A stretch of 64,000 nt of DNA from contig JAXDKS010000063.1 of NCBI GenBank assembly GCA_034666985.1, positions 105,226-169,225 on the forward strand, read 5' to 3'. Below, one piece after another: positions 9,467 to 27,157 of the stretch. A program made the position numbers and the translations under genes. The notes below the pieces were generated by a model that made no database searches, was not told the origin of the DNA, and was given only the letters and a program-made list of their open reading frames with translations. Source of the stretch: Acidobacteriota bacterium. Its GTDB lineage: Bacteria > Acidobacteriota > Thermoanaerobaculia > Multivoradales > UBA5704. Each line of letters starts with the position of its first letter. Positions within the stretch are counted from its first letter, which is position 1.

Positions 9467-10924
9467 GTGGTCTTCAGCTCCCACCTCTTCGTCTACTACT
9501 TCCTGCCGCTCGCCCTGGCCGCCTACTACCTGGCGCCGCGGCGGGGGAAGAACCTTGTCCTCACCCTGTTCAGCTTCGTCTTCTACGGCTGGGCGAACGT
9601 GGCCTTCATCCCGCTGCTGATCACCTCGACGCTCATCGACTACTTCTGCGGCCTGGGCCTGACGGGCGGCTTCCGTCCGCCCTGGCGCGGCGAGCTCCCG
9701 CTGCTGGAGCCGGGCGGGCCGCGCAGCCGATCGCAGAAGGCTATCCTGGCCGTCTCCATCACCGCCAACCTCCTGCTGCTCGGCTTCTTCAAATACTTCA
9801 ACTTTTCGGTGGACAGCTACAACGCCGTGGTCGAGACCTTGGGCTTCACCGGCGCGCGGCTCGATTCGGTGATGCGGGTGGTGCTGCCGCTCGGCATCAG
9901 CTTCTACACCTTCAAGAGCATGAGCTACGCCATCGACGTCTATCGCGGCGAAGCGCGCGCCATGCGCCACCTCGTCGACTTCTTCTGTTTCGAGTCGATG
10001 TTCCCGGACCTCGTGGCGGGACCGATCATCCGCTTTTCGGAGATCGCGGACCAGCTCGTGAACCGCACGATCACCAGCGAGAAATTCGCGCGCGGCGTCG
10101 CCTTCTTCTGCCTTGGGATGGCGAAGAAGGTGCTGCTCGCCAACCCCTGCGGCAGGATCGCCGACACCACCTTCGGCGCCGGCGCCCTCGGCGCGCTCGA
10201 CGCCTGGCAGGGCCTGTTCGCCTATGCCTTCCAGATCTATTTCGACTTCAGCGGCTACTCCGACATGGCGATCGGTCTCGCCCTGATGCTCGGCTTCATG
10301 TTCCCCAAGAACTTCGACTCGCCCTACAAGGCCGTATCGATCACCGACTTCTGGCGCCGCTGGCATCTGTCACTCTCGACCTGGCTGCGCGACTACCTTT
10401 ACATTCCACTGGGCGGCAACCGCAAGGGCGAGGGGCGCACCTATGTCAACCTCTTCCTCGTCATGCTGATCGGCGGCCTCTGGCATGGGGCGGCGTGGAC
10501 GTTCGTGATCTGGGGAGCCATCCACGGCGGCTGGCTGGCACTCGAACGGGCGCTCGGCAAGGACAGTTGGTACCGCCGGCTGCCGCACGTGGGTCGCGTG
10601 GCGCTGACCTTCTTCATCGTCCTCATCGCCTGGGTCTTCTTCCGGGCGCCGGACCTGGGGAGCGCCCTGCACTACCTGGGGAGCCTCGCCGGCCTGGGGG
10701 GGACCATGCCCGGGGCGGCCCTGATCGGTGGGCTGATCCGCCGCCCCTACGACCTGCTCAACCTCGCGCTGGCGGCGGTGATCGTCTGGGGCGCCCCGCA
10801 GACCTGGGACTGGACCCGCAGGCTGACTTGGCCCAAGGGCCTGATCTGTCTCGCCCTGCTCGGCCTGGCGCTGGCCGCCATGGCGACGCAAGGCTACAAC
10901 CCGTTCATCTACTTCATCTTCTGA
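9467..10924 (+). CDS. MBOAT-family membrane-bound O-acyltransferase (AlgI/PatA/DltB-like)
   Basis: Multi-TM protein carrying the conserved MBOAT block WRRWHLSLSTWLRDYLYIPLGGNRKG...GGLWHGAAW with the catalytic His. GTG start at 9467. Confidence 0.9.
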   Translation: MVFSSHLFVYYFLPLALAAYYLAPRRGKNLVLTLFSFVFYGWANVAFIPLLITSTLIDYFCGLGLTGGFRPPWRGELPLLEPGGPRSRSQKAILAVSITANLLLLGFFKYFNFSVDSYNAVVETLGFTGARLDSVMRVVLPLGISFYTFKSMSYAIDVYRGEARAMRHLVDFFCFESMFPDLVAGPIIRFSEIADQLVNRTITSEKFARGVAFFCLGMAKKVLLANPCGRIADTTFGAGALGALDAWQGLFAYAFQIYFDFSGYSDMAIGLALMLGFMFPKNFDSPYKAVSITDFWRRWHLSLSTWLRDYLYIPLGGNRKGEGRTYVNLFLVMLIGGLWHGAAWTFVIWGAIHGGWLALERALGKDSWYRRLPHVGRVALTFFIVLIAWVFFRAPDLGSALHYLGSLAGLGGTMPGAALIGGLIRRPYDLLNLALAAVIVWGAPQTWDWTRRLTWPKGLICLALLGLALAAMATQGYNPFIYFIF

Positions 10925-10933
10925 GGCGGACCT

Positions 10934-12226
10934 GTGAATTCCATCCCCGAGCCTGAACGCGAGCGGATCGCCAAGATCGAGATCGGCCACACCGACGTCT
11001 CGAAGGCGCTGGCGTGGGTTCTCGTCCTCCTCTTCCTGGCGGTGATCGCCACGGTGCCGATCATCGACCTCGTCACGGGGAGGGCCCGGCAGACGGGCGT
11101 CACCCCGGGCTCGCTCGCCGCCGTGGGGCCCGTCATCCGTCAGGACGGCTGGATCGCCGGCGCCTACGCCCTCCTGCGCCAGATGCACCAGCTCGAAGAC
11201 GGCCTCGAACGGAAATCCTGGCTTGGCGCCGCCCTGCTGCCGCGGACGCAGCGCGTGCTGACCGCTTTCGGCGTCGGCAACGAGAAGGTCTACCTCGGGC
11301 GGGACCGCTGGCTCTACTACACGCCGGACGTGCAGTACGTGACCGGCTTCCCCTTCCTGGATCGCAACGTCCTCGAACGCCGGCGGCTCGGCGGCCAGGC
11401 CTGGGAGGAGGCGCCCCACCCCGACCCGCTCCCTGCCCTGGTCGATTTCCAGCGCCAGCTCGCCCGGCGCGGCATCGCCCTGCTCCTGGTGCCCACGCCG
11501 CTCAAGCCGATGATCGATCCCGAGCCGCTCGCGGGCGCCCGCCCCGCGACGCTCCCTCTGGAGAACCCCTCCTGGCCCGACTTCGTCCGCCGGCTCGACG
11601 CCGCCGGCCTCGCGCTCTTCGACCCCGCCCCCCTGCTCGCACAGGAGAAGGCCGCGCACGGCGGCCAGCCGCAATATCTCCGCACAGACACCCACTGGAC
11701 CCCGCAGGCGATGGACTTGGTGGCGACTCGCCTCGCCGAGCGCATCCAGGCCCTCGTTCCTCTCGATCCTCCCACCGGAACCGGCTTCTTCCGTCAGGCG
11801 CAGACCGTCTCGAACACGGGCGACCTCGCGGTCCTCCTCACCCTGCCGCCGGCCCATCCGCTCAAGGAGCCGGAGCGGGTGACGATCCAGCGCGTGGTGA
11901 CGGCCGAAGGCCGCTCCTGGAAGCCCGATCCCCAGGCCGCCGTCCTCCTCCTGGGCGACAGCTTCACCAACATCTACTCGCAGAGCGACCTCGGCTGGGG
12001 CACCGGCGCCGGCCTCGCCGAGCAGCTCGCCTACCATCTCGGCCGCCCGGTCGACCGCATCGCCCTGAACAGCGGCGGCGCCCTCAACACCCGCCAGCGC
12101 CTCGCCCAGGATCTCGCCACCGGCAACGACCGCCTCGCCGGCAAGAAGGTCGTCGTCTACCAGTTCGCCATGCGCGAGCTGGCGATCGGGGATTGGCGGG
12201 TGATCGGGCTGGGGGGCGGGCGGTAA
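10934..12226 (+). CDS. AlgJ/AlgX/PatB-like SGNH-fold O-acetyltransferase partner of the MBOAT
   Basis: N-terminal TM anchor and C-terminal LLLGDSFTNIY...LNSGGALNT block typical of AlgJ-family proteins. The position immediately 3' of the MBOAT gene supports the call. Confidence 0.65.
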   Translation: MNSIPEPERERIAKIEIGHTDVSKALAWVLVLLFLAVIATVPIIDLVTGRARQTGVTPGSLAAVGPVIRQDGWIAGAYALLRQMHQLEDGLERKSWLGAALLPRTQRVLTAFGVGNEKVYLGRDRWLYYTPDVQYVTGFPFLDRNVLERRRLGGQAWEEAPHPDPLPALVDFQRQLARRGIALLLVPTPLKPMIDPEPLAGARPATLPLENPSWPDFVRRLDAAGLALFDPAPLLAQEKAAHGGQPQYLRTDTHWTPQAMDLVATRLAERIQALVPLDPPTGTGFFRQAQTVSNTGDLAVLLTLPPAHPLKEPERVTIQRVVTAEGRSWKPDPQAAVLLLGDSFTNIYSQSDLGWGTGAGLAEQLAYHLGRPVDRIALNSGGALNTRQRLAQDLATGNDRLAGKKVVVYQFAMRELAIGDWRVIGLGGGR

Positions 12227-15200: not shown

Positions 15201-15628
15201 CGCACGCCGTCGCCGACATGCAGAACCCGGAGCTCTCCGGCCTGATGCTTTCGCAGGTGGACGCCGAGGGCCACCCCCAGGAGGGCTTCCTCGGCCTGTC
15301 GGACATCTACGAGCTCGACCTCGACGCCGACCTGGTGGTCCTCTCCGGCTGCCGGACCGCGATGGGCAAGGAGGTCCGTGGCGAGGGACTCATGGGATTG
15401 ACCCGCGGGTTCCAGTACGCTGGCGTGCCGCGGGTGGTGGCAAGCCTGTGGCGGGTGCAGGACCGGGCCACCGCGGAGCTGATGACCCGCTTCTACCGGG
15501 CGATGTGGCGCGACCACCTGGCCCCCGCGGCGGCCCTGCGCGCGGCTCAGAAGTCGCTCCGCCGCGAGCCCCGCTACCGCGATCCCTACTCCTGGGCCGG
15601 CTTCGTCCTCCAGGGCGACTGGCATTGA
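12278..15628 (+). CDS. Secreted TPR-repeat protein with C-terminal CHAT (caspase-like) domain
   Basis: Signal peptide, then more than 10 TPR-like repeats (ALNNLG.., ALxxxxxALxLxRxLGD). C-terminal CHAT block ILHFATHAVAD...LVVLSGCRTAMG carrying the His/Cys dyad. RBS TAGGAG precedes ATG 12278. Confidence 0.85.
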   Translation: MPPKLLSVRGRGLVGFAVPILSLLLARPMQAEAPKSEETLPLGEARERPITVGEAHAWRVTVEPGTNLLVTVDQHSIDLVLEARGEGREPIAVHAGDRWGLEVLLLETAGEVRIEVRPRQKSAWPGRYTIRTEALSTGESARRDALALLSRAGQEALPDTPDSNRQALATYREALAAWRSLGDRAWEAEALACLAILEANSGELRRADEDFLAALGLWRELGQPHREAEALNWLGGVIYPKTQTIERSREALEGARALWHRLGESSDEAETRSSLCFLEQTRGSLQAALACHEEVLAIFRALGDQENEARVLNNLGGTYNLLGEPDAALASLEKALALRHALDDRQDEVGTLINIAALHRSLGEWQEALRFYDQAREMLKTLGDRRLEATMLNNMGFTYLNLGEPERALPYLEDALERRRGVGDRSGEVTTLNNLGMAWRKLGDLKKALDQHRQALDLAVALKDVGQQATSRLRLAEAHLDEGDAAAALHDLDAALALLREKGNRLTETEVLHQRGRALTLAGREREALPVLQEVLARRQAVRDRAGEAETLYALAVAERSLGLAAEARAHVEAAVVQVEDLRLGIASPDLRASFLATRRRAFSLLIDLLMDRHAAEPDRGHDREAFSISERARARSLLDALRGTSLGHPGSGVPAELLSRRRILLRRQSDKIDERWKQSGEKGQALEKEIDAIVAALEAVEAEIHRNDQHFAAVSAPQPVGPAEISGWLEPGTMLLEYSLGEDRSFLWTVEAGQIRSFVLRGQKEIEDLTRRVYEELSTVESGKVRPGEAAAALSRILLGPIWNDRSDAARLRRLVVVPDGALGILPFAALPVPDPGRSWQTPGTLQPLLERLEVVYIPSATTLAVQRQRLERRTPAPKRAAVLADPVFAADDPRLAHRSAASPPKLGKKVETKSLLRGGGASFEPLPATRREAEAVAGLAPTGEVWLRLGLDASREAVLSGALRDYRILHFATHAVADMQNPELSGLMLSQVDAEGHPQEGFLGLSDIYELDLDADLVVLSGCRTAMGKEVRGEGLMGLTRGFQYAGVPRVVASLWRVQDRATAELMTRFYRAMWRDHLAPAAALRAAQKSLRREPRYRDPYSWAGFVLQGDWH

Positions 15629-15647
15629 AAGGACGTTGAAACTTCGG

Positions 15648-15677
15648 GTGAGACAACCGGCAGCCTCGCGACAGTCT
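15648..15677 (+). promoter_or_regulatory. Copy 1 of a bipartite promoter-like motif GTGAGAYA-N12-GCGACAGTCT (putative ECF sigma promoter; likely autoregulatory)
   Basis: Identical architecture and spacing to the sites at 17771-17800 and 20909-20938. Lies 53 nt upstream of the ATG of the first gene of the sigma operon. Confidence 0.55.
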
Positions 15678-15729
15678 TAGGGATGAACTGACATGGGCTC
15701 TCGAAGAGCCCGTTTGAAAGGAGTCCGAA

Positions 15730-16170
15730 ATGGCCAGATCCATAGTGACAGATGCCCCGAGAGTCATCCTTCAAAACCCGCCTTGGATGAGCCGGCCTTG
15801 GCGCATTCGATCCTCCTCCGATCCCCTCCTGGGAGTGGCGCCGCACCCGGACATTCTGCTGTTCACCACGGCAGGAAAGATCACAGTCCTGAAGAACGGC
15901 GACACGCAGACGCAGAAGGACTGGGCCAAGTCGTGCCAGCTCACGGCCGGCGGGGGGCTCTCAGGTCTCACGTCGGACAACAAGCCCTTCCTCATCCAGT
16001 ATAACTCCAGCACCAAGCATCTGACCTGTCATATCCCCCCCCTGGAGGTAGGAACCTCAGCCAAAATGCCCGGCCCGGGCGCTACCTGGGTCGCGGAGGA
16101 AGGGGGTTCCGGCGGCCCGGGTTCCGGCGGCCCGCCGCTGCCCAAAAATCCTGGCCCGTCCCGAGACTGA
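15730..16170 (+). CDS. Hypothetical small protein, probably first gene of the ECF sigma operon
   Basis: RBS AAAGGAG lies 8 nt before ATG 15730, and the promoter-like motif sits just upstream. No recognisable domain; Gly/Pro-rich tail. Confidence 0.5.
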   Translation: MARSIVTDAPRVILQNPPWMSRPWRIRSSSDPLLGVAPHPDILLFTTAGKITVLKNGDTQTQKDWAKSCQLTAGGGLSGLTSDNKPFLIQYNSSTKHLTCHIPPLEVGTSAKMPGPGATWVAEEGGSGGPGSGGPPLPKNPGPSRD

Positions 16171-16309
16171 GCCGTCTCAGGAGACGCCCTCCGTGCGCGC
16201 CACGTTGGCATCCAGCCCCGATCCCCGAGATATGATGTTCGTCGTTCTCGGAAGATCTGGAGCATGGCCGGCCGGGCCGGTTCGCCCGGGTGGAGGCACG
16301 CTGGGCGTC

Positions 16310-16912
16310 ATGAGCACCGATGTGGGACCAGAGCCGGACGAGGCGGCGGTCGCTGCCGACCTCGTCCGGCGGATCGCGGCGGGAGATGCGACCGCCGAAG
16401 GGCAGCTCGTCGAACGCTACCGTCGGGGCCTCCTCTATCTGCTGCGCCGCCTCGGGGCCCTGCCGGACCTCGCCGACGACCTCCAGCAGGAGACCTTCCG
16501 GATCGTGATCGAACGGCTGCGCCAGGAGGGTCTCGCGGACCCGGCCGGCCTCGCGCCCTTCCTCCGCGGCACGGCCCGCAACCTTCTCATCGCCGAAAGG
16601 CGCAAGGCGGCGCGCCGGCGGACCTGGGGCGACACGGGCGAGCTGGCCGAGGCCGTGGCGCCCGCGCCGAGCCAGCTCCAGTCCGTGCTGCTGGACGAGG
16701 AGGCCGAGATCGTGCGAAAACTGATCGGCGAGCTCCCCACCGACCGCGACCGGCAGCTCCTGCTACGCTTCTACGTCGGCGAGGAGGACAAGGAGAGCAT
16801 CTGCACTGATCTCGGGCTCGACAGTCTTCACTTCAACCGCGTCCTCTTCCGGGCCCGCCAGCGCTTCAAAGAGCTCCTGGAACGCTTCGAGAAACGGCAG
16901 GCCCGGGCCTAG
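16310..16912 (+). CDS. ECF (group 4) sigma-70 family sigma factor
   Basis: Region 2 (LVERYRRGLLYLLRR...DLQQETFRIVIERL) and region 4 HTH (ELPTDRDRQLLLRFYVGEEDKESICTDLGLDSLHFNRVLFRARQRFKELL). ATG at 16310; GTG 16193 would add an atypical 39-aa extension. Confidence 0.85.
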   Translation: MSTDVGPEPDEAAVAADLVRRIAAGDATAEGQLVERYRRGLLYLLRRLGALPDLADDLQQETFRIVIERLRQEGLADPAGLAPFLRGTARNLLIAERRKAARRRTWGDTGELAEAVAPAPSQLQSVLLDEEAEIVRKLIGELPTDRDRQLLLRFYVGEEDKESICTDLGLDSLHFNRVLFRARQRFKELLERFEKRQARA

Positions 16913-16937
16913 TGAAGGCCCGAAGGAAGGACAACGG

Positions 16938-17774
16938 ATGGATCACGACTACATCGAAGAGCACCAGATCGCCGACCGCTACGTGATGGGGACCCTCCCG
17001 GCGGACGAGGTGGAGCGATTCGAAGACCACTATCTCTCCTGCCCCGAGTGCCTGGATCACCTGGAGCTCGCCGAGCCCGTCCAGCGGGGCTTCAAACGGA
17101 TGGCAGGACAGGACGCCGCGAAGCTCTCCGCCACGCGGCAGCTCGCCTTCCTGGCCTGGCTCACCCGCCTCGGCCGCTCGCGCCAGATCGGATTCCTCCT
17201 CGCGGCCCTGCTCGTCATCGCGGTCCTGCCGGCCGGCCTGGCCCTACGGGGGACCGCCGAGCGCGGGCGGGAGCTGGCGCAGACCCGCTCGGCCCTGGAG
17301 CAGGAGCGGCATCGCGCGGCTACGGGTGCGCGGAGCGCTGCGGAGGTCGAGAAATTGCGCTCGGAGCTGAGCACCGAGCGAGATGCCAGGACGCACGCCG
17401 TCGAGCAACTCGCCCAGGCCCGCCAGCCCCAGGCCAACACCCCGATCCTCTTCTTCGACGCGGAGCGCGGCGGCGGCCCGCCGGAAGCCGAGCCGACGCA
17501 GCAACTGCACCTGCCGGCGAAGGCGGGCTGGATCGTCCTCGCCCCGGTGATGGACCCTCCCTTCTCCCCCTCCTATCAGGCGATCCTGCGGGATGCCCGC
17601 GGCCGAGAGCTGTGGCGCGTCAAGGACCTCCACCCGAACGAGCGCGACACCTTGAGCCTCAGCCTCCCCGCCAGCCTCCTGCCGCCCGGCGACTACTCCC
17701 TCTCGATCGAGGGCCTCACGCCCGGCAAAAAGCCCGCCGCCGCCGGCCGTTTCACCTTCCGCGTCCTCGCGTGA
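16938..17774 (+). CDS. ZAS-type anti-sigma factor (HxxxCxxC zinc motif), single TM, extracytoplasmic coiled-coil domain
   Basis: FEDHYLSCPECLDHLE zinc-binding anti-sigma motif and TM IGFLLAALLVIAVLPAGLAL. Sits immediately downstream of the ECF sigma, with RBS GAAGGAAGG. Confidence 0.8.
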   Translation: MDHDYIEEHQIADRYVMGTLPADEVERFEDHYLSCPECLDHLELAEPVQRGFKRMAGQDAAKLSATRQLAFLAWLTRLGRSRQIGFLLAALLVIAVLPAGLALRGTAERGRELAQTRSALEQERHRAATGARSAAEVEKLRSELSTERDARTHAVEQLAQARQPQANTPILFFDAERGGGPPEAEPTQQLHLPAKAGWIVLAPVMDPPFSPSYQAILRDARGRELWRVKDLHPNERDTLSLSLPASLLPPGDYSLSIEGLTPGKKPAAAGRFTFRVLA

Positions 17775-17800
17775 GATAGCGCGCCGGCCGGCGACAGTCT
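17771..17800 (+). promoter_or_regulatory. Copy 2 of the GTGAGATA-N12-GCGACAGTCT promoter-like motif, 41 nt upstream of the M36 protease ATG
   Basis: Near-identical to copy 3 over about 40 nt, including the leader (GATCGAACG / GATCAAGCG and TCGAAAGGAG RBS context). Confidence 0.6.
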
Positions 17801-17840
17801 CCGATCGAACGCTCTGATGAGCGATCGAAAGGAGAGAAAA

Positions 17841-20810
17841 ATGAGAACGAAAGCCCTTTGGCTCGCCGTCCTCGCTGCCCTCGGCGGGCTTCCGCTCGCA
17901 GCGCAGTTGGAAGGCAATCGCCCCTATGATGCGCGCATCGCGCAGAACGCCAACCTGAAGAACGTCACCCCGGCGCTGATGGCTCAGGTGGCCGCGCTAC
18001 GCAGTGCCAGGCCCGATCTGCTCGTCGAGTACGACGATGCGGCCGGTACGACGCGCTCCCTTTACAACCCAGGCGGAAACCTGAGCGATGCCAAGGCCTC
18101 GAACCTCGGGATCGACCCGCTCCTCATCGCCCAGCGGTGGGCCGAGGCGCACAAGGCCGCCCTCGGGCTGACCAGCGCCGATCTCGCCCAGGCCGCCGTC
18201 AACGACAGGGTCAGCTCCCCCCTCGGTGGCACGACGCACCTCTACCTGCGCCAGACCTTCAAGGGGCTGACGGTCTACAGTGCCCTGCTCCAGCTCAACC
18301 TCGACCGCCAGGGCCGGGTGATGAGCGTCAACAACAGCTTCCAGGCCGGTCTCGCGACTTCGATCAACACCCTGACCCCGGGCATCGACGCGGCCAAGGC
18401 CGTGGCCAGCGCCGCCAGGCACCTGAAGCTCGATGCGGCGCCCCGGCAGCTCGGCTCTCCTTCCGGCGTCGACCAGCGAACGGGAGTGGACAACGCCGGG
18501 CTCTCGCGCCAGCCGATCGCGGCGCACCTGATGCTGCTCCCCATCCGGCGCGGCGAGACCCATCTGGTGTGGAATTTCCTTATCTACACCCTGGACAGCC
18601 AGCACGTCTACGACCTGACGGTCGACGCCGTCACCGGGCAGGTCTGGACCCGCTTCGACCTGGTGGCGAGCGATACCTACAAGGTCTATCCCAAGCCGGT
18701 CGAAAGCCCGAACCACACCGCTCCTCTGCCTCCTGCCGACGGCCGCGGAGTGTTGACCAACCCGGCCTTCAATCCCGGCTCCCCCTTCGGCTGGCACGAC
18801 ACCAACGGCGTCACCGGCGCCGAATTCACGACTCTGCGCGGCAACAACGTCCACGCCTACGACGACATCGACGCCAACGACCTGCCGCCGGGCAGCGAGC
18901 CCAACTGCGGCATTACCTTGAATTGCAGCTCCCCGATCAACCTGGCTGGCGCGCCTAGCACCTATACCCCGGCGGCGGTCGCCAATCTCTTCTACTGGAA
19001 CAACGTCGTGCACGACGTGCAGTTCCAGTATGGCTTCAACTCGCCGTCCGGCAACTTCCAGACCAATATCTACGGCGCCGGCGGCCTCGGCAATGACGAG
19101 GTGCAGGCCGAGGCGCAGGACGGCGGCGGCATGAACAACGCCAACTTCTTCACCCCGGTCGACGGCCAGCGGCCGCGCATGCAAATGTACCTGTGGAGCA
19201 CGGCCACGCCACAGAAGGACGGCGATCTCGACAGCGGCGTCATCGTCCACGAATACGGCCACGGGATCTCCAACCGCCTGGTCGGCGGACCGAGCAACGT
19301 CACCTGCCTGGTCAACCCCCAGCAGCCGGGCGAGGGCCTCTCCGACTGGTGGGCGCTCGCCTACACCCACAAGGCCGGCGACCAGGGGACCGACGGGCGC
19401 GGCATCGGCACCTACGTGCTGAACCAGCCGACCACCGGCCCCGGCATCCGCGCCAAGCGTTACAGCACCGACCCGGCGATCAACAACTGGACCTACGCCA
19501 GCATCAACGGCATGGCCATCCCGCATGGGGTGGGCTCGGTCTGGGCGGAGGCGGCCTGGAGAGCCTACTGGGCGCTGGTCGACAAGTGGGGCTTCGATCC
19601 CAACCTTTACAATGCCACAGGCGGCAGCGGCAACCAGCGGATGATGCTCTATGTCAACGAGGGGTTGAAGTTCACCGCCTGCAACCCCACCTTCACCCAG
19701 GTGCGGGACGGCATCCTGCAGGCGGCCTCGGTCAACTACGGCGGGGTCGACGTCTGCCCCCTGTGGGTTGCCTTCGCCGCTTTCGGCCTGGGCAGCAACG
19801 CCGTCTCGGGCGGCCCCAACAGCACGACGCCGACCAACGGATTCGCCGTTCCCCCGCAGTGCCGCACCGACGTCTGGATCCAGGACACGCCATCCGATAC
19901 CGGGCTCGAGCCCGATCCCGCCACCGTCGGCCAGCCGATGTGGCAGAGCCAGGACATCTGGGTGAGGAACAGTCTCACCAACGGTCCGCACGAGAACCCG
20001 GAGTACGGCCAAGTCAACTATATCCATGTCCGAGTGAGGAACCGGAGCTCGGTCGCGGCCGCCAACGTGCCGGTCAAGGTCTATTTCGCCAATGCCTCGG
20101 TCGGCCTCTCCTGGCCGGCGAACTGGACGCTGATCAATACCGGCAACGTCGTCAGCCTTGCTCCCGGCGCCAGCACCGAGGTCGTAGTGCCGTGGAGCCC
20201 GCCGGGGCCGCCACCGCCCTCGCACTTCTGCCTGGTGGCGCGGCTGGACACGGCCCAGGACCCCATGACCTTCCCCGAGACCACCAACATCGACCTCAAC
20301 GTGCGCAACAACAACAACATCGCCTGGAGGAACGTCAACGTCGTCGACCTCATCCCCTTCCAGATCGTCAAAGCCACGTTCAACGTCCGCAATCCCGGTC
20401 CGAAGAAGCTTCGTTCGAAGATCATCTTCCGCGAGCAGCGGGGCGGAGAGGGCTTCCTGAAGCGGGGTCGGGTGATGATCGACCTCAGCAAGCTCGCCGC
20501 GCGCTGGCAGGAGGGCAGGCGAGAGGGCAAGGGCTTCAGGACGATCGACGGCCATACGATCGAGGTCGAAAACGGCGGCTATATCATCGTCACCCTGAAC
20601 GGGCGCGAGGAGTTCGACCTCGGCCTGACTTTCGAGGACACCGCCCGGCGAGCTTCGACCAAACCGACCACGGACCGGCAGGCGGCCAGGCCGGCCGTCA
20701 ACCGGTACGGTTTCGAAATCGTGCAGGAGGATGCCGACCATGGGAAGGAGCTGGGAGGCATCGCCTACCAGATCGTAGCCCCGGTGCCGGTAGGGGCGCC
20801 GCCGCAGTGA
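17841..20810 (+). CDS. Secreted M36 (fungalysin-like) zinc metalloprotease with propeptide and C-terminal extra domains
   Basis: Signal peptide MRTKALWLAVLAALGGLPLAAQ, HEYGHGISNRL (HExxH) and downstream EGLSDWWA Glu block, with fungalysin-like N-terminal propeptide features. RBS AGGAGA precedes ATG 17841. Confidence 0.85.
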   Translation: MRTKALWLAVLAALGGLPLAAQLEGNRPYDARIAQNANLKNVTPALMAQVAALRSARPDLLVEYDDAAGTTRSLYNPGGNLSDAKASNLGIDPLLIAQRWAEAHKAALGLTSADLAQAAVNDRVSSPLGGTTHLYLRQTFKGLTVYSALLQLNLDRQGRVMSVNNSFQAGLATSINTLTPGIDAAKAVASAARHLKLDAAPRQLGSPSGVDQRTGVDNAGLSRQPIAAHLMLLPIRRGETHLVWNFLIYTLDSQHVYDLTVDAVTGQVWTRFDLVASDTYKVYPKPVESPNHTAPLPPADGRGVLTNPAFNPGSPFGWHDTNGVTGAEFTTLRGNNVHAYDDIDANDLPPGSEPNCGITLNCSSPINLAGAPSTYTPAAVANLFYWNNVVHDVQFQYGFNSPSGNFQTNIYGAGGLGNDEVQAEAQDGGGMNNANFFTPVDGQRPRMQMYLWSTATPQKDGDLDSGVIVHEYGHGISNRLVGGPSNVTCLVNPQQPGEGLSDWWALAYTHKAGDQGTDGRGIGTYVLNQPTTGPGIRAKRYSTDPAINNWTYASINGMAIPHGVGSVWAEAAWRAYWALVDKWGFDPNLYNATGGSGNQRMMLYVNEGLKFTACNPTFTQVRDGILQAASVNYGGVDVCPLWVAFAAFGLGSNAVSGGPNSTTPTNGFAVPPQCRTDVWIQDTPSDTGLEPDPATVGQPMWQSQDIWVRNSLTNGPHENPEYGQVNYIHVRVRNRSSVAAANVPVKVYFANASVGLSWPANWTLINTGNVVSLAPGASTEVVVPWSPPGPPPPSHFCLVARLDTAQDPMTFPETTNIDLNVRNNNNIAWRNVNVVDLIPFQIVKATFNVRNPGPKKLRSKIIFREQRGGEGFLKRGRVMIDLSKLAARWQEGRREGKGFRTIDGHTIEVENGGYIIVTLNGREEFDLGLTFEDTARRASTKPTTDRQAARPAVNRYGFEIVQEDADHGKELGGIAYQIVAPVPVGAPPQ

Positions 20811-20835
20811 ATTGATCCCGGCTGCACCGTGTTCT

Positions 20836-20861
20836 GCCCCCGGGCCGTCCGGCCCGGGGGC
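20836..20861 (+). terminator. GC-rich hairpin (11-bp stem GCCCCCGGGCC/GGCCCGGGGGC, loop GTCC) after the M36 gene; possible terminator lacking a U-tract
   Basis: Perfect inverted repeat 26 nt after the stop at 20808-20810. Confidence 0.35.
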
Positions 20862-20908
20862 CCTTCCCGCCTGACGCTCTAAAAAACCTTTCGCACTTCT
20901 CGCTTGAC

Positions 20909-20938
20909 GTGAGATAACGGCCCGCCTCGCGACAGTCT
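20909..20938 (+). promoter_or_regulatory. Copy 3 of the GTGAGATA-N12-GCGACAGTCT promoter-like motif, 49 nt upstream of the VWA protein ATG
   Basis: See copies 1 and 2. Followed by the shared leader and RBS context TCGAAAGGAGA. Confidence 0.6.
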
Positions 20939-20986
20939 CAGATCAAGCGTGGATCATTGGGATCACCCGCTCGAAAGGAGACTGTC

Positions 20987-22231
20987 ATGAAAATAAAAGA
21001 CGCCAATTCAAGGCCCTCCCGCCTGAATTGCAGCAACGTGACCGCCTATCTCAACGAGTATCTCGGCGGCAAGTGCAAGTCGAAAAAGAATCACCTCAAG
21101 CCTTGCCATGACGAAACCCCGCACGGGTGTAGCTGCGGCGGCTCATCCCATGCCACCGGCAACAAGGTCGACCTCATCATCCTCATCGACGGCAGCAGCT
21201 CGATGACGACCGCGGCGAACCTCGTCAACAGCGCCGCCATCAGCGCCCTCAAGATCGCCCATGAGAAGTGCCCGTCGGATCTGCGGGTCGACTGGTTCAC
21301 CGTGGACAACGACAACCCCGGTACGACTGCCAGCGGATCGGGAGGATGGCCGGGCACCAACTTCACCCGGACCCATGAGCAGTACCTGAACAGCATCGGA
21401 GTCGCCGGACCCTATTTTCACAACAACGCCCAGACTCCCGGAGGCTCTCCCAACAACGAGCAGGGAGCGGACGCTGTCGCCGACCTGTCAAAATTCTACG
21501 ACTGGCGGCCAGGCGCCTGCCGGGCGATCTTCTACATCAGCGATACCACCCTGGACGCCGGCGGGAGCCAGGATCCGGACGATACCGCGGCGACCACGAA
21601 CGCCATCTCCCAGGCCCTCGCCAATCAGGTAGCGGTATTCACCCATTTCGTCATCCCCCACGTCACCTCCTCCGTGCCGGCCACCCAGGCTGACTACCAG
21701 GCCCTGTGCAGCCAGACGGGCGGCACGTTCTATGAGGGAGCGGTCAGTCAGGAAAAGTATGTCGAGATCCTCACGGACGTGGTCTGCCACGCGTGCGGGG
21801 GCTGCAAGGAGATCAAGGCTCCGGACATCGGGCCCTGCGTCTCGATCTCATGGGGCGACAGCGAGTGCGACTGCATCGAGACCGACGACGTCGAGATCCT
21901 CTGCATCACGCTGTGCAACTGCTACTCCAACGTCACCTTCGAGAACGTCGTGGTCGGCACGATCGTGGTGACGGACGGCGCGGGCAATGTCGTCCCGACC
22001 CTGCCGGACGGCACTCCCTCCATCCAGGCCATCCCCATCGGTCCCATCTGCTTCGGCAGCATCGGGCCCTGCAAGGATGGCAACGCGGCTTGCGTGTCGC
22101 GGGAGTTTGCCCTGCGGCTGCGCGGGGCCAAGGGCGGCACGTATCAGGTCCACGTCCGGCCGATCTGCTACAGCGTCACCTTCCACTACCAGAAGGAAGA
22201 ATGCTTCCTGATCCCTGTCTGCCAGGATTGA
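20987..22231 (+). CDS. VWA (von Willebrand factor A, MIDAS DxSxS) domain protein with Cys-rich C-terminal domain
   Basis: VDLIILIDGSSSM MIDAS motif. C-terminal region has more than 20 Cys in CxxC/CxC arrangements (HACGGCKEIK..., CDCIETDD..ILCITLCNCY). RBS AAAGGAGA. No obvious signal peptide. Local GC is lower than the surroundings. Confidence 0.7.
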   Translation: MKIKDANSRPSRLNCSNVTAYLNEYLGGKCKSKKNHLKPCHDETPHGCSCGGSSHATGNKVDLIILIDGSSSMTTAANLVNSAAISALKIAHEKCPSDLRVDWFTVDNDNPGTTASGSGGWPGTNFTRTHEQYLNSIGVAGPYFHNNAQTPGGSPNNEQGADAVADLSKFYDWRPGACRAIFYISDTTLDAGGSQDPDDTAATTNAISQALANQVAVFTHFVIPHVTSSVPATQADYQALCSQTGGTFYEGAVSQEKYVEILTDVVCHACGGCKEIKAPDIGPCVSISWGDSECDCIETDDVEILCITLCNCYSNVTFENVVVGTIVVTDGAGNVVPTLPDGTPSIQAIPIGPICFGSIGPCKDGNAACVSREFALRLRGAKGGTYQVHVRPICYSVTFHYQKEECFLIPVCQD

Positions 22232-22297: not shown

Positions 22298-22939
22298 TCA
22301 CGGCAGCAGCCCCCGCCGCGCCGCGTAGCGGACCAGCTCGGCGGTGTTGTGGACGCCCAGCTTCTCCATCAGCCGGCAGCGGTGGTTGTCGGCGGTCTTG
22401 ACGCTGATCCCCAGGCCGCGGGCGATCTCCTTGGTGGTGCGGCCGTCGACCACGAGATGGAAGACCTCGCGCTCGCGGGGGGAGAGGCCGCCGTAGGGAT
22501 CGTCCACCGGCGCCGGCTGGCGGTACTGCTCGGCGAGCACCCGCGCCGCCTGCGGACCGAAGTAGCCCTGGCCGGCGTGGAGGGCGCGCACGGCGGCGAG
22601 CAACTCGGCCACGGCGCTGTCCTTCACCAGGTAGCCGGAGGCGCCGGCACGCACCACGGGCAGGACGTACTCTTCCTCTTCATGCACCGTCAGGGCGAGC
22701 ACGCGGATCTGCGGCATCTCCTCGTGGATGCGGCGCACCGCCTCCAGGCCCGAGAGGCGCGGCATGGTGAGGTCGACGACCGCCACCTCCGGCCGCGTGG
22801 CGCGCGCCTTCTCCACCGCCTCCAGGCCGTCCGCCGCCTCGGCCACCACCTCGCACTCGCCGCTCTCGACGAGCAGGCTCACCAGACCCTGGCGCACGAG
22901 GGTGTGGTCGTCCGCGACCAGGACCCGCACCCGGGCCAT
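22298..22939 (-). CDS. NarL/FixJ (LuxR-type) response regulator
   Basis: REC domain (VLVADDHTLVRQG...VVDLTMPRLSG) plus LuxR HTH (LSPREREVFHLVVDGRTTKEIARGLGISVKTADNHRCRLMEKLG). The ATG shares one nt with the stop of the upstream HK gene. Confidence 0.9.
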   Translation of the reverse strand: MARVRVLVADDHTLVRQGLVSLLVESGECEVVAEAADGLEAVEKARATRPEVAVVDLTMPRLSGLEAVRRIHEEMPQIRVLALTVHEEEEYVLPVVRAGASGYLVKDSAVAELLAAVRALHAGQGYFGPQAARVLAEQYRQPAPVDDPYGGLSPREREVFHLVVDGRTTKEIARGLGISVKTADNHRCRLMEKLGVHNTAELVRYAARRGLLP

Positions 22940-23682
22940 CACGTCACCTCCGTCAGGGGCACCACGGCCGAGATCCGGGTCCCCTGGCCGGGCGCAGAGG
23001 ACAGCTCCAGGCGGCCGCCGAAGAGCTCCAGCCGGTCGTGCATGCCGCGCAGGCCGGAGCCCGCCGCTCCGCCCCCGAGGATGGACTTGGGATCGAAACC
23101 CCTCCCGGCGTCGGCCACCCGCAACTCGAGAAGCTCCCCGGCCCGCCGCACGGCGACCTGGGCGCGGTCCACGCCCGCGTGCCGGAGGACGTTGGTCAAG
23201 GCCTCCTGGATCAGGCGGAAGACCAGCGTCTCGACGTCCGAGTCGAGGCGCTCGTCGAGACCGTCGAGAGCGAGCTCGACCTTGAGGCCCGTGCGCTGCT
23301 CCAGCGTGCGGGCGAACCAGGTGAGCGCGGGGGCGAGGCCGAGGTCGTCGAGCACCGGCGGGCGCAGCAGGCGCGACATCTCACGGGTCTCGTTGAGGGC
23401 GAGGCGCGCCATGTCGACCGAATCGCCGAGGCGGGCCGCCAGCTCGGGGGATACCGCGCCGTCAAGCTTCTCCCGCAGGCGCTCCAACTGATGGGTGAGG
23501 GCGGTCAGGGTCTGACCGAGACCGTCGTGCAGCTCGCGCGCCAGGCGCCGCTGCTCCTCTTCCTGCACCTTCCACACCGCCTTGGCGAGGCCGCGGAACC
23601 GGCGCTCCCCTTCGATCAGCCGCGCGAACAGCCGCTCGTTGGCGCGCGTGATGTCGCGCACGCGGTCGACGATGTCGTGCAT
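22939..23682 (-). CDS. Cytoplasmic NarX/DegS-type sensor histidine kinase (HisKA_3 + HATPase_c), no TM or sensor domain
   Basis: H-box LARELHDGLGQTLTAL, then N/G boxes (...RVADAGRGF...GSGLRGMHDRLELFGGRLEL). Start placed at ATG 23682..23680, because the longer ORF start at 23763 would overlap the upstream kinase by 68 nt. Confidence 0.75.
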   Translation of the reverse strand: MHDIVDRVRDITRANERLFARLIEGERRFRGLAKAVWKVQEEEQRRLARELHDGLGQTLTALTHQLERLREKLDGAVSPELAARLGDSVDMARLALNETREMSRLLRPPVLDDLGLAPALTWFARTLEQRTGLKVELALDGLDERLDSDVETLVFRLIQEALTNVLRHAGVDRAQVAVRRAGELLELRVADAGRGFDPKSILGGGAAGSGLRGMHDRLELFGGRLELSSAPGQGTRISAVVPLTEVT

Positions 23683-23695
23683 CGGATCGGCGGGC

Positions 23696-26600
23696 TCAAC
23701 CGTTCGGCTTGAGCGGTCCAACCCGGACTCCCGGTCCACCGGCTCCGTCCTGCTTCGTTCCATCCTGGGCCTCCACCCTGCGATCGAAAAACTGCCGCGG
23801 CTCGGGAGCGAGGTCCCGGCTCACCCTGGCGATCTCCTCGCCGGCGCGGCGACGTTCGGCTTCGGCCTCGGCGCTCCGGCCGTCGCGTTCCAAAGCACGT
23901 GCCAGCAGCCGGTGCAGCCGGTAGGAGCCGGCGTAGCCGCCGCAGGCCGTTGCAAGCTGAAGGCCGGCCCGGGCCGCCGCCTGCGCCCGCCCCGGCTCGC
24001 CGGCGGCGAGCGCCGCCCGGGCCACGGCCTCGGCGGCGCGCAGCCGCAGCCGGGCGTTACCCAGCGCCTCGGCCTCGGCGCGCAAGCGCTCCAGCTCGGC
24101 GAGCCCGGCCCTGGACCGGCCCGGAACGTCGGCGGCCGACAGCCGGGTGGCCAGGATCTCGACCACGCCATGGCTCTCTTTGGCCTCGGCGACCGCCCGG
24201 CGCAGGGCCTCCCCGGCAGCGGCGCGATCCCTCGGACCATCGTGCGCCAGGAGATGCTCGCCGCGCAGCCGGTCGAGCTCGGCCTGCTGCTCCCGGTTCT
24301 TGCCCTCGGCCAGCAGCTCCCCGGCGGCCCGCAGGCGCTCGCCGGCGGCCTCGATCATCCCCAGCTCGAGCTCGGCCTCGGCCGCGGCCAGGGTGAACTC
24401 GGCGAGACCCCGTCGGTCGCCGAGCTCACGCAGGACCTTCAGGGCTTCATCGTAGGAGGCGAGAGCGGCGCCCGGGCGTCCCTGGTACTGGGCGAGGCGC
24501 CCGAGGTTGCCGAGCGAGACCGCGATCGTCTCTTTCTTGCCGAGCTCCCGGCTCGCGCCGAGGGCGGTGAGGAAGGACTTGACCGCCTCATTCCACTCCC
24601 CGCGCGCCAGCTCGAGCTGGCCGAGGTTCTGCGTCGCCAGAATGACGCCGCTCGGATTGCCGCTCTGCTTGGCCAGGTCGAGACCCTGGCGCCAGTAGAC
24701 CAGGGCGTCGTCGTAGCGCCCCAGCAGGTAGCAGGCGAAGCCCACGTTGCTGAAGCTCTGGGCCAGGGCGAGGTCATTGCCGAGGTCGCGGCGTACGCGC
24801 AGCGCCTGCCGGTAGCCCTCCAGGGCCTCCTCGTAGCTGCCCCGCTGCTCGGCGAGCACCCCGAAGTTGTCGTAGAGGTCGGCGATGCCCGGCGCGTCGC
24901 CCAGCCGCTGCAGGAGAGCCAGGGCCTCCGTGAGCTGCGACCGGGCCGCCGCGTACTGGCCGCGCATCGTATGGATGGTCGCCAGGTTGCGCAGGGTCGT
25001 CGCATAGCCGCGCTTGTCGCCGATCCGCTTCCGGATGGCCGCTGCCTGCTCGTAGGTCTCGACCGCTCGATCCATCTCCCCGAGGTTGCGGTAGGCCACC
25101 CCGAAGGCGTTCAGCACCTCGGCCCGGCTCTGCTCGCTGCCGAGCTCGTTCTGCACCACCAGCGCCCGTACCAGGTACTCGTCCACGGCGTGCCGGGCGT
25201 CGCCAGCCACGATCGAATACCTGCCGAGGAGGAACCAGGCGCGCGGGTGATGCGGCGCGAGGCGCACCGCCTCCCGCAGGGCGGCGATCGCACGGTCGAG
25301 GCTCCCCTGCTCGCCGTAGGCCTCCGCCAGCTCGATCCGCGCCTCGACGTCGTCCGGGTAGCGCGCGAGCAGCCGGGAGAGGATCTCCTGCGCCCGCTCC
25401 GGACGGCCCAGGAGCCGCGCCTCGACGGCCCGCGCCTCGTAGGCCGCGCGGCTCTCTCCTGCCCCCAGGATCTCGACCGCCCGTTGCGCCGCCTCGCGCG
25501 CCGGCTCCCCCTGGCCGAGCGCCTGGCGCGCCCGGGCGAGCTGCACCCAGGCAGCGCTGTAGCGCGGATCGGCCGTCACCGCCCGCTCCAGGGAGGGCAC
25601 CGCCGCCAGGGCGTCCCCGCGCCGCAGGCTCTCCACCCCCTTGGAGTACTCCGCCAGGGCCGCCGGCGAACGGCTCGCCACCGGCTCTACCGCCACGGCC
25701 GCGGGTACCGCGAGCTCCCGGCGCAGGACCCCGCCGAGTTGCTCGACGAGGCGGAAGGCCTCCCCTTCCGCGGCCTCGGCGTGAAGCGCTGCCGCCGGCA
25801 GGCCGGGGGGGTCCGTCGCCAGCAGCGAGAGATCGATCCGCAATTGGCCGCCCACGGCGCGGACCCGGCCGCCGACCAGATGGTCGGCGTCGAGCAGCCC
25901 CGCCAAGCGCCGCGCCTCGGTCTCGGGCAGCGGTCCGCGCGGCAGCTTCAGATCCTCCAGGGTGCGGAAGACCCGCTGGCTGTCGAGCACCCGCAGCTCC
26001 GGGCTCTCGGCCAGGGAGGCGGCGAGCATCTCCGGCATCCCGATAGCCACCCAGGCCAGGTCCGGCCGGCCCGTGTCGTCGGCCAGGGGGAGGAGCGCCA
26101 CGGCATGCCGAGGCCCCGCGGCGACCGTCTTCCTGGCAGCGGCCGGCTGCCGTGCCTGCGGGACGCGCCCGCGGCCAACCTCGCGGACGGCCCAGCCGAG
26201 GACGAGCAAGACGAGGAGACAGCCCACCCCCACCGCGATCTGCCACCGCTGAATCGCGGGGGCCGCGCGGTGCTGGTCGTCGAGCTCCTGGACGACCTCG
26301 CCCGCGCTCTGCGGTCGCCGCGCCGGGTCGCGCGCCAGCAGCCGCTGCACGAGGGCCCGCAGGGGGGCCGGCACCGCGGCTGGCCAGCGCAGATTGCGCG
26401 GCGACCCGGTCAACCGCTGGGCCAGCATCTCGGCCTCGGTGGCGGCCGAGAACGGCAGCTCGCCGGTCAGCATCTCGTAGAGGAGGAGCCCCAGGGTATA
26501 GAGATCGGACCGGCCGTCGACCGCGTCCCCTCGCGCCTGCTCCGGCGAGAGATAGCCGAGGGTGCCGAGCACGGTGCCGGGGACGGTCAGGCCCGAGCCC

Positions 26601-27157
26601 GTGAGCGAGCGGGCGATCCCGAAGTCGGTGATGGCGACGCGCAGGGAGCCTCCGCTCTCGTCGACCAGGACGTTGCCGGGCTTCAGGTCGCGATGGATCA
26701 CCCCCGCGCCGTGGGCCGCCTCCAGCGCGAGGGCGAGCTGACGGGCGATCGCCACCGCCCGCTCCGGGGCCAGCCGCGTCTCCTCGGCGAGCAGGTCCCC
26801 CAGCGACCGGCCAGGGACGAAGTCCATGGTGAGGAAGGCGAGATCGCCGTCGCTGCCGATGTCGTGGATGCGGACGACGTTGGGGTGGCTCACCTGCCGC
26901 GCCAGCACCAGCTCCTGCTTGAAGCGCTCCAGCCACCGCCCATCCCCCGCCAGGTCGGGCCGCAGGACCTTGACCGCGACGGGCAGCCCGAGCTGCTCGT
27001 CCTGCGCCCGGTAGACCATCCCCATGCCGCCGACGCCCACCAGCTCCAGGATGCGGTAGCGCCCGCCGAGCAGGGAGCCCACCGCCAGCCGCTGGACAGC
27101 TCCCTCGGCGGTGCGGGTCGGGAGGTCCGACCGCCGCGCCGGGAGCTCGCCGCTCAC
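23696..27157 (-). CDS. Hanks-type Ser/Thr protein kinase, single TM, long extracytoplasmic TPR-repeat region (1153 aa)
   Basis: YRILELVGVGGMGMVYRA...VIHRDLKPGNVLV...DFGIAR...GTLGYLSPE catalytic core, TM WQIAVGVGCLLVLLVLGWAV, then more than 12 TPR-like repeats. The GTG start at 27157..27155 overlaps the stop of the FHA-GAF gene (GTGA). Confidence 0.85.
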   Translation of the reverse strand: MSGELPARRSDLPTRTAEGAVQRLAVGSLLGGRYRILELVGVGGMGMVYRAQDEQLGLPVAVKVLRPDLAGDGRWLERFKQELVLARQVSHPNVVRIHDIGSDGDLAFLTMDFVPGRSLGDLLAEETRLAPERAVAIARQLALALEAAHGAGVIHRDLKPGNVLVDESGGSLRVAITDFGIARSLTGSGLTVPGTVLGTLGYLSPEQARGDAVDGRSDLYTLGLLLYEMLTGELPFSAATEAEMLAQRLTGSPRNLRWPAAVPAPLRALVQRLLARDPARRPQSAGEVVQELDDQHRAAPAIQRWQIAVGVGCLLVLLVLGWAVREVGRGRVPQARQPAAARKTVAAGPRHAVALLPLADDTGRPDLAWVAIGMPEMLAASLAESPELRVLDSQRVFRTLEDLKLPRGPLPETEARRLAGLLDADHLVGGRVRAVGGQLRIDLSLLATDPPGLPAAALHAEAAEGEAFRLVEQLGGVLRRELAVPAAVAVEPVASRSPAALAEYSKGVESLRRGDALAAVPSLERAVTADPRYSAAWVQLARARQALGQGEPAREAAQRAVEILGAGESRAAYEARAVEARLLGRPERAQEILSRLLARYPDDVEARIELAEAYGEQGSLDRAIAALREAVRLAPHHPRAWFLLGRYSIVAGDARHAVDEYLVRALVVQNELGSEQSRAEVLNAFGVAYRNLGEMDRAVETYEQAAAIRKRIGDKRGYATTLRNLATIHTMRGQYAAARSQLTEALALLQRLGDAPGIADLYDNFGVLAEQRGSYEEALEGYRQALRVRRDLGNDLALAQSFSNVGFACYLLGRYDDALVYWRQGLDLAKQSGNPSGVILATQNLGQLELARGEWNEAVKSFLTALGASRELGKKETIAVSLGNLGRLAQYQGRPGAALASYDEALKVLRELGDRRGLAEFTLAAAEAELELGMIEAAGERLRAAGELLAEGKNREQQAELDRLRGEHLLAHDGPRDRAAAGEALRRAVAEAKESHGVVEILATRLSAADVPGRSRAGLAELERLRAEAEALGNARLRLRAAEAVARAALAAGEPGRAQAAARAGLQLATACGGYAGSYRLHRLLARALERDGRSAEAEAERRRAGEEIARVSRDLAPEPRQFFDRRVEAQDGTKQDGAGGPGVRVGPLKPNG

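Follow-up and report, generated by a model that had tools for sequence, protein, structure and literature searches.

We analyzed a 64,000-nucleotide (nt) stretch of DNA from an Acidobacteriota bacterium (contig JAXDKS010000063.1, positions 105,226 to 169,225; here called the window), in which three copies of a bipartite motif lie around the genes for a sigma factor of the extracytoplasmic function (ECF) type and a ZAS-type anti-sigma factor. The genes of this region are all on the plus strand and encode, in order, a TPR-CHAT (caspase-like) protein, a small protein of 146 amino acids (aa), the sigma factor, the anti-sigma factor, an M36 (fungalysin) metalloprotease, and a protein with a VWA-like domain and a cysteine-rich domain (the VWA/Cys-rich protein). 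Their coordinates, and those of the associated noncoding features, are listed in Table 1.

A preliminary description of the region, made from the sequence alone, had assigned the two central genes to an ECF sigma factor and a ZAS anti-sigma factor, and domain searches agreed with both assignments. The sigma factor matched Sigma70_r2 (E = 4.8e-7) and, over residues 29 to 189, TIGR02937 (48.9 bits; cutoff, 42.9 bits), and its nearest relatives in a sequence search of the PDB were ECF sigma factors. The best NCBIfam subfamily, TIGR02989, was rejected (52.9 bits; cutoff, 124.55 bits). The 1,134 sigma homologues came mostly from Thermoanaerobaculia/Acidobacteriota and all from uncultured metagenome-assembled genomes (MAGs); Thermoanaerobaculia sigma factors were not mentioned in any paper that we found. 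The anti-sigma factor matched zf-HC2 (23.2 bits; cutoff, 22.2 bits) and has an N-terminal H-x3-C-x2-C zinc motif, a single hydrophobic span, and an extracytoplasmic domain of about 170 aa, with no CHAT or TPR domain.

Table 1. Features of the sigma factor region, in window coordinates
Feature	Coordinates	Strand	Remarks
TPR-CHAT (caspase-like) protein, 1,116 aa	12278..15628	+	Directly upstream of copy 1; Pfam CHAT (E = 1.4e-72) and TPR_12
Promoter copy 1 (predicted), GTGAGACA-N12-GCGACAGTCT	15648..15677	+	ECF-type promoter, predicted to be autoregulatory, before the small-ORF/sigma/anti-sigma operon
5' leader of transcript 1 (predicted)	15693..15723	+	Hairpin GGGCUCU-CGA-AGAGCCC (15693-15713), followed by Shine-Dalgarno sequence GAAAGGAG
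First operon gene, 146-aa protein	15730..16170	+	Fast-evolving family; motifs P-x-W-M-x-x-P-W and T-W-V-A-E-E-G-G
Second conserved noncoding element	16226..16309	+	G-N-TATGAT (TATGAT at 16231-16236) and a conserved leader of about 75 nt up to the sigma ATG
ECF (group 4) sigma factor, 200 aa	16310..16912	+	Sigma70_r2; TIGR02937; start fixed by alignment at MSTD (ATG at 16310)
ZAS-type membrane anti-sigma factor, 278 aa	16938..17774	+	zf-HC2; H-x3-C-x2-C; one hydrophobic span
Promoter copy 2 (predicted), GTGAGATA-N12-GCGACAGTCT	17771..17800	+	Overlaps the anti-sigma stop codon; predicted driver of the M36 gene
5' leader of transcript 2 (predicted)	17806..17834	+	Hairpin (17806-17827), followed by Shine-Dalgarno sequence GAAAGGAG (17827-17834)
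M36 (fungalysin) metalloprotease	17841..20810	+	FTP propeptide and C-terminal extension; Peptidase_M36 (E = 8.6e-124)
Promoter copy 3 (predicted), GTGAGATA-N12-GCGACAGTCT	20909..20938	+	Predicted driver of the VWA/Cys-rich gene; flanks orthologous to the relatives' post-anti-sigma promoter
VWA/Cys-rich protein, 414 aa	20987..22231	+	N-terminal VWA-like domain and C-terminal Cys-rich beta domain; monocistronic

A three-copy motif and its conservation beside the sigma factor gene

The pattern GTGAGAYA-N12-GCGACAGTCT matched the window without mismatches at exactly the three same-strand positions given in the preliminary description (copies 1 to 3), and no fourth match with up to three mismatches was found on either strand of the whole window. 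At the same tolerance, dinucleotide-shuffled sequences contained a mean of 0.06 matches, and none of 100 shuffles reached three. The identical three sites were recovered when the spacer between TGAGA and CGACAGTC was relaxed to 13 to 17 nt. The second half-site alone was not enriched (6 occurrences with one mismatch versus 5.5 expected); therefore, the signal resides in the bipartite arrangement. With a weight matrix whose training set was related loci only, the three sites scored 33 to 36.5 bits and everything else in the window 12 bits or less. A scan for two-hexamer sigma-70 promoters between positions 15400 and 21100 returned no sites.

The copies end 53, 41, and 49 nt before the ATG codons at 15730, 17841, and 20987, each of which is preceded by the Shine-Dalgarno (SD) sequence GAAAGGAG (15716-15723, 17827-17834, and 20973-20980). 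The earlier observation that the copies stand close upstream of start codons in a similar ribosome-binding site (RBS) context was thereby confirmed. Beyond the motif of roughly 30 nt, the three copies have in common only this context, (T)YGAAAGGAG, and the ATG. In copy 2, the TGA within GTGAGA is the stop codon of the anti-sigma gene (17772-17774).

Conservation was assessed in 80 loci from metagenome contigs (L001 to L080; 79 nonredundant), which were retrieved by alignment of sigma homologues with no use of motif information. Their sigma factors were 47 to 92% identical to that of the window, and a full-length anti-sigma homologue adjoined the sigma gene in 76 of the 80. The loci were scanned for the core GTGAGATA-N12-GCGACAG with up to two mismatches, and spacers of 8 to 16 nt were compared. 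With the 12-nt spacer, 64 matches lay on the strand of the sigma gene and 3 on the opposite strand; these 64 accounted for all but 6 of the 70 same-strand matches over all spacers, and each other spacer length gave at most 3. Scrambled half-sites gave a mean of 0.8 matches in the same loci. Matches were concentrated around the sigma gene, with 58 in the 220 kb spanning -1.3 to +2.7 kb of its start and 6 in the other 348 kb, a density about 15-fold higher. Among the 26 loci with a sigma factor at least 66% identical and enough flanking sequence, 23 carried a copy upstream of the sigma operon, located either 130 to 230 nt before the sigma gene or 570 to 1,170 nt before it and then ahead of a small open reading frame (ORF). 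A copy just 3' of the anti-sigma gene was present in 13 of 23 related loci. Weaker versions of the motif occurred next to sigma homologues down to about 52% identity.

The motif also emerged when no pattern was assumed. In counts of 7-mers upstream of the sigma gene, GGTGAGA, TGAGATA, and GCGACAG were each found in 19 of 32 loci on the sense strand and in none on the antisense strand. Information content peaked at G-1, GTGAGATA, and GCGACAG, with minor contributions at R8, C9, CTC (positions 17 to 19), and T27; the flanks contributed nothing. An SD sequence and a start codon (ORF of at least 50 aa) followed 15 to 85 nt downstream (median, 54 nt) at 39 of 46 sites, compared with 17.5% of random positions. 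The motif is rigid in its spacing, oriented, associated with genes, and conserved together with the sigma family. A dispersed repeat present on both strands with no gene association, which the preliminary description had named as the finding that would overturn its view, does not fit the strand bias of 64:3, the fixed spacer, and the proximity to genes; nor do the window copies, which share about 27 nt plus the SD sequence, resemble miniature inverted-repeat transposable elements or repetitive extragenic palindromes.

Taking GTGAGA and CGACAG as the -35 and -10 cores leaves a spacer of 15 nt. Spacers of ECF promoters are quoted as 14 to 17 bp (PMC6061681), and thus the geometry fits an ECF promoter. 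We read the three sites as ECF-type promoters, each with a -35-like GGTGAGATA, a fixed spacer, and a -10-like GCGACAG(T), that would be recognized by the sigma factor encoded at 16310-16912; we place the probability of this reading at roughly 0.8. The motif ahead of the sigma operon in 23 of 26 loci argues for positive autoregulation as earlier proposed, and the proposed regulon is supported by the recurrence of the motif after the anti-sigma gene and elsewhere in the same genomes (see below), mostly with the SD-ORF arrangement. Taken together, these sequence comparisons support a view of the window as an autoregulated ECF sigma/ZAS anti-sigma regulon of a kind already known, with an unusual promoter consensus.

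Several observations weigh against the reading of these sites as ECF-type promoters of the adjacent sigma factor. The commonest ECF consensus is GGAAC/CGTC, and the half-sites found here, GGTGAGATA and GCGACAG, are unlike it, containing neither the canonical AAC at -35 nor CGT at -10. Because individual ECF groups are known to deviate from the canonical motif, the noncanonical half-sites lower the resemblance to it and do not bear on the mechanism. At the threshold used, the upstream copy was missing from 3 of 26 loci and the downstream copy from 10 of 23. In a subgroup with 57 to 65% sigma identity, the motif lies between the sigma and anti-sigma genes (6 of 7 loci), a wiring unlike that of the window. 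Finally, more than one paralogue of this sigma family occurs in some genomes (L023 and L074 are on one contig, Ga0193706_1000006), so that the pairing of sigma factor and promoter rests on proximity and coconservation.

Within the 57 to 65% subgroup (L046 to L055, L058, L061, and L080), the motif is found where the sigma gene ends, immediately ahead of the anti-sigma gene. This position suggests a different feedback wiring, in which the sigma factor would induce its own inhibitor.

Such paralogues give some room to the possibility that another alternative sigma factor, either a family paralogue encoded elsewhere or an unrelated ECF factor, reads the promoter and that the adjacent sigma gene is a target, and motif copies far from any sigma gene would suit it as well. 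We regard it as unlikely. The motif tracks the sigma family over 52 to 92% identity and into a MAG labeled as another phylum, it precedes the sigma operon in most of the loci in which this could be judged, and in the paralogue locus L074 (51% identical) the neighborhood of the sigma gene is free of the motif, the single match being a three-mismatch site some 8.6 kb downstream. The strict pattern described below has just two matches on the complete 8.78-Mb chromosome OY970330.1, one on either side of a single sigma operon (L104 and L093, which are adjacent chunks). Slightly less probable again is a binding site for a conventional activator or repressor. The weak GAG...CTC complementarity between the first half-site and spacer positions 17 to 19, and the LuxR-type response regulator encoded just downstream (22298-22942), could be taken in its favor, but the response regulator and its kinase were found in no related locus, and no DNA-binding regulator other than the sigma factor is conserved in the neighborhood. 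Moreover, the site is asymmetric, rigidly spaced, and strictly oriented toward the downstream gene, and it stands only 19 to 74 nt from the start codon with no conserved -10-like element in between. Least probable is that the motif marks a boundary of mobile gene cassettes. In its favor, the cargo 3' of the motif differs among close relatives, copy 2 and the M36 gene appear to have been inserted before an ancestral promoter, and the G+C content dips to 0.63 at 20 to 22 kb. Against it, a motif copy stands before the conserved sigma operon as well, the motif always has a co-oriented gene downstream of it at RBS distance, the copies share only about 27 nt, and neither inverted repeats nor target duplications nor recombinase genes were found in the vicinity.

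The ECF promoter reading was extended to a genome collection (one genome per species, 185,579 species) with the exact pattern GTGAGATARC-N10-GCGACAG. The pattern matched 94 stretches, compared with about 139 chance matches expected over the collection on a uniform base composition. About 45 of the 80 matches listed (of 94 in total) belonged to Thermoanaerobaculia, Thermoanaerobaculaceae, Holophagales, or Acidobacteriota MAGs. These taxa are, in our own judgment and not by count, a small fraction of the collection; therefore, the matches are strongly concentrated in Acidobacteriota. Among the Acidobacteriota matches listed, about half adjoin a sigma/anti-sigma/CHAT module, and the rest lie elsewhere in the same genomes (two to six sites per genome). 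These dispersed sites, including those on six contigs of SMAG_U1354 and five in MFD10043.bin.2.76, mostly have an SD sequence and an ORF at 15 to 77 nt, an arrangement mostly lacking from the matches listed in unrelated phyla. In one MAG labeled Gammaproteobacteria (L140:3566-4267), the motif lies on the opposite strand beside a 50%-identical sigma gene, ahead of a gene for a signal-peptide protein; either the sigma-promoter pair spread laterally or the sequence was misbinned.

Leaders, the first operon gene, and a second element before the sigma gene

If transcription starts 5 to 9 nt after CAG, the transcripts would carry leaders of about 35 to 45 nt with a hairpin and a strong GAAAGGAG RBS. 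Folding z-scores of the window leaders were -1.8, -4.5, and +0.2 for copies 1 to 3, and the mean over 103 leaders was -1.06. Leader 2 had a folding energy of -11.5 kcal/mol, and none of 200 shuffles was as stable. In an alignment of 13 orthologous leaders, 87% of the cells preserved the hairpin of leader 1, and its covariation was not significant (shuffles matched the scores in 38 to 122 of 500 cases). A hairpin in the sigma operon leader is plausible from these comparisons. The "promoter-leader module" of the preliminary description accordingly stands as a shared layout of short untranslated region (UTR), hairpin, and GAAAGGAG. A known structured RNA family was rejected for the leaders and for the block at 16226-16309, with no Rfam match at the gathering score in the window or at E of ≤1 in 15500-21100.

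The 146-aa product of the first operon gene had no match in Pfam or NCBIfam, and 15 cluster representatives of its family were found and aligned. Its AlphaFold2 (AF2) model (pLDDT, 70) is all-beta with eight or nine strands, and the best Foldseek matches were lipocalin-like (E, about 6e-3), which weakly suggests a lipocalin/FABP-like protein. Similar small "W-x-V" proteins are encoded downstream of the motif in many loci.

Between this gene and the sigma gene lies a second conserved noncoding element. TATGATG occurred on the sense strand in 19 of 32 loci and on the antisense strand in none. In an alignment of 25 loci, conservation begins abruptly at TATGAT and extends to the sigma ATG, and TATGAT variants retain T-12, A-11, and T-7 even where ATGs are lost. 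A coding interpretation of the block was rejected, as it lacks 3-periodicity and the sigma reading frame is interrupted by stops in 7 of 25 loci. RNAalifold found no convincing structure in the block (-11.7 kcal/mol; covariation term, 0.01). The element is probably an extended -10 promoter of the housekeeping type, followed by a conserved 5' UTR that may be regulatory, and would provide basal expression of the sigma and anti-sigma genes; together with copy 1, it points to a dual-promoter layout, basal plus autoregulated. This is the arrangement of sigR and rpoE, and the same is likely here.

The block also contains a palindrome centered on AGATCT, which reads GGAGATCTCC in most relatives. A GGCGC-N5-GCGCC hairpin abuts the sigma ATG, which has no SD sequence at the normal distance.

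Putative targets and variable cargo

The preliminary description had considered the products of the two downstream genes to be extracytoplasmic effectors. This holds for the M36 protease, which has a signal peptide (MRTKALWLAVLAALGGLPLAAQ, judged by eye) and a partial match to NF038113; no signal peptide was evident in the VWA/Cys-rich protein. A hairpin of 11 bp of G+C without a U tract lies 26 nt after the M36 stop codon (20836-20861, plus strand) and is a possible end of transcript 2. The M36 gene was found in none of the 80 related loci (tblastn), so it is not a conserved member of the regulon, which qualifies the regulon reading.

The VWA/Cys-rich protein had no Pfam match even at E = 10, VWA models included. 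Its earlier label is nevertheless borne out by structure prediction: the AF2 model (pLDDT, 82) matched integrin beta I-like and VWF A1 domains in Foldseek with a probability of 1.0 (E, 3e-9 to 1e-5), and the DxSxS motif of a MIDAS is present as DGSSS at residues 68 to 72. The family includes 352 homologues across phyla (44 to 93% identity), among them proteins of Psychrobacter and Allosphingosinicella, none of which is annotated. About 20 cysteines are invariant or nearly so in the family. In the closest relatives, the gene again lies downstream of the motif (L001 and L023, both with 92% sigma identity, and L116, with 82%). The genes that follow it in the window are convergent on the minus strand (the LuxR response regulator gene, 22298-22942, and then a kinase gene), so that only one gene stands behind copy 3. 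Two ORFs that might be taken for downstream genes, 22349-23491 and 23582-28525, were set aside as probable shadow ORFs, the real neighbors being on the minus strand.

In L116, L095, and L001, the promoter located immediately 3' of the anti-sigma gene has flanks that match those of copy 3 (TAAAAAACCTTTCG... upstream and GGATCATTGGGATC...TCGAAAGGAG downstream). Copy 2 and the M36 gene therefore look like a promoter-cargo unit that was inserted ahead of an ancestral promoter. The G+C content falls to 0.63 to 0.67 over 18 to 22 kb, where the M36 and VWA genes lie, compared with about 0.69 to 0.72 in the flanks, which is consistent with acquired cargo.

The genes preceded by the motif in related loci are diverse. 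They encode SpvB, neprosin, NPP1 (a necrosis-inducing protein), a PI-PLC-like protein, a Phi_1+ChW protein, a TIR protein, and a P450, as well as an M64-like peptidase (below the Pfam cutoff), many small signal-peptide proteins, recurrent "W-x-V" proteins, and an "ANFFEL" family. The predicted outputs of the regulon thus vary from locus to locus, with secreted hydrolases and toxin-like proteins predominating. Several of these cargo families, like the M36 fungalysin, are typical of fungi, oomycetes, or plants, which hints at horizontally acquired attack functions.

The SpvB, NPP1, neprosin, PI-PLC-like, Phi_1/ChW, and TIR cargo was seen in L085, L100, L036, L021, L139, and L109. Short motif-driven ORFs also occur directly after the anti-sigma gene (L141:5616-5779 region, L145:5616-6724, and L156:3150-3326); they start with MKIKTQVKAGGISINHNQT..., contain NHNQTLV repeats, and look like repeat or precursor-like peptides. 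The ORF called after the anti-sigma gene in L145 also bears TPR repeats.

A TPR-CHAT partner and comparison with known systems

Overlooked in the first reading of the window, the TPR-CHAT protein is, on the evidence of its genomic distribution, a conserved partner of the sigma/anti-sigma pair. Its N terminus resembles a signal peptide, and the presumptive catalytic residues His976 (HFATH) and Cys1025 (LSGCRT) are present; this dyad is kept in 43 of 44 orthologues. The gene was detected by tblastn in 37 of the 80 loci and, by our tally, in about two-thirds of those with long upstream flanks. It mostly ends just before the motif and in a few loci lies downstream of the sigma gene; in L094, L123, and L026, it has a motif copy of its own. 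Searches with the PADLOC defense models returned a generic TPR match only.

These features suggest the following course of regulation. At rest, the sigma factor would be held by the cotranscribed ZAS membrane anti-sigma factor, with basal expression of both probably supplied by the separate TATGAT-type promoter at about 16231. Inactivation of the anti-sigma factor would free the sigma factor to act on the three promoters: at copy 1, amplifying its own operon together with the small lipocalin-like protein; at copy 2, expressing the secreted M36 protease; and at copy 3, expressing the VWA/Cys-rich protein. The neighboring secreted TPR-CHAT protease would be the obvious candidate for the first cleavage of the anti-sigma factor.

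In its general design, the locus resembles SigR-RsrA of Streptomyces, SigW-RsiW of Bacillus, and RpoE-RseA of Escherichia coli, which likewise pair a two-domain sigma factor with a cotranscribed zinc-motif anti-sigma factor and place a bipartite promoter of fixed spacing before their own operon and a handful of targets. Unlike those systems, the locus has GTGAGATA and GCGACAG in place of GGAAC and CGTC, a small, putatively lipocalin-like first operon gene product, a secreted TPR-CHAT protein as a conserved neighbor, and variable secreted hydrolases and toxin-like proteins, not envelope repair genes, as predicted targets.

The presence of an ECF sigma factor, a ZAS domain, and a periplasmic TPR-CHAT domain in one locus, with several predicted sigma-dependent promoters serving the sigma gene and neighboring cargo, recalls DdvS-DdvA (PMC11506125, PMC6061681). 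DdvA of Myxococcus xanthus is a ZAS-TM-TPR-CHAT fusion with an incomplete active site and the only characterized TPR-CHAT anti-sigma factor, and fused anti-sigma factors like it have been reported only in Myxococcota and one Comamonas (PMC11506125). Here, in contrast, the TPR-CHAT protein is separate from the anti-sigma factor and has its own signal peptide, the His/Cys dyad is intact in nearly all orthologues, and the cargo consists of secreted enzymes, not CBASS or CRISPR systems. Sequence searches of the PDB for kinship with DdvS or DdvA gave only generic ECF, TPR, and RsrA matches. CHAT-domain proteins are also conserved beside the sigma factors of ECF54, for which CHAT-containing proteases in the genomic context, proposed proteolytic control, and no anti-sigma factor have been described (PMC8999054); ECF54 was set aside because a ZAS anti-sigma factor accompanies the sigma gene in nearly all of the loci studied here. 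In the type III-E CRISPR craspase, the TPR-CHAT protein Csx29 cleaves Csx30 and thereby releases an ECF sigma factor (PMC10028731). The likeness to the present locus, a TPR-CHAT protease linked to ECF sigma release, would be one of logic only, as the window has no CRISPR context, its CHAT protein has a signal peptide, and its anti-sigma factor is a ZAS membrane protein.

We tentatively propose, at somewhat less than even odds, that the DdvA principle is split here between two proteins. A stand-alone periplasmic TPR-CHAT protein would sense an external cue through its TPR array and, by means of its intact His/Cys dyad, make the first cut in the extracytoplasmic domain of the anti-sigma factor, releasing a sigma factor that induces itself, a fast-changing and partly eukaryote-like arsenal (fungalysin, NPP1, neprosin, SpvB, and PI-PLC), and, in some genomes, the protease gene too. 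If so, the module would be a widespread attack or defense switch in abundant uncultured soil Thermoanaerobaculia. The secreted and predicted catalytically intact TPR-CHAT protein would offer a second, simpler system besides DdvA for the study of caspase-like gating of ECF signaling.

The analysis adds a family-wide promoter model, the variable secreted arsenal, and the TPR-CHAT association that suggests a split mechanism. The model defines a testable regulon for an unstudied ECF sigma family with more than 1,000 homologues that is common in uncultured soil Acidobacteriota, and the consensus GGTGAGATA-N12-GCGACAG could be used to predict secreted proteases and toxin-like proteins that are deployed together. 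The pair of sigma factor and promoter may also serve synthetic biology as a candidate orthogonal switch, given that the half-sites are unlike the common ECF consensus.

Among the more distant genes of the window, those for a subtilase (Peptidase_S8, 29274-31874) and a DUF6689 protein (28219-29325) lie downstream; no motif site above 12 bits was found at either gene, and they are thus not predicted members of the regulon. The upstream genes at 5711-12226, which are not conserved with the sigma module, encode a GDSL-like lipase/AlgX-like protein, a PKD/laminin-G protein, an MBOAT acyltransferase, and an AlgX-like SGNH protein, and look like an alginate-type polysaccharide O-acetylation set.

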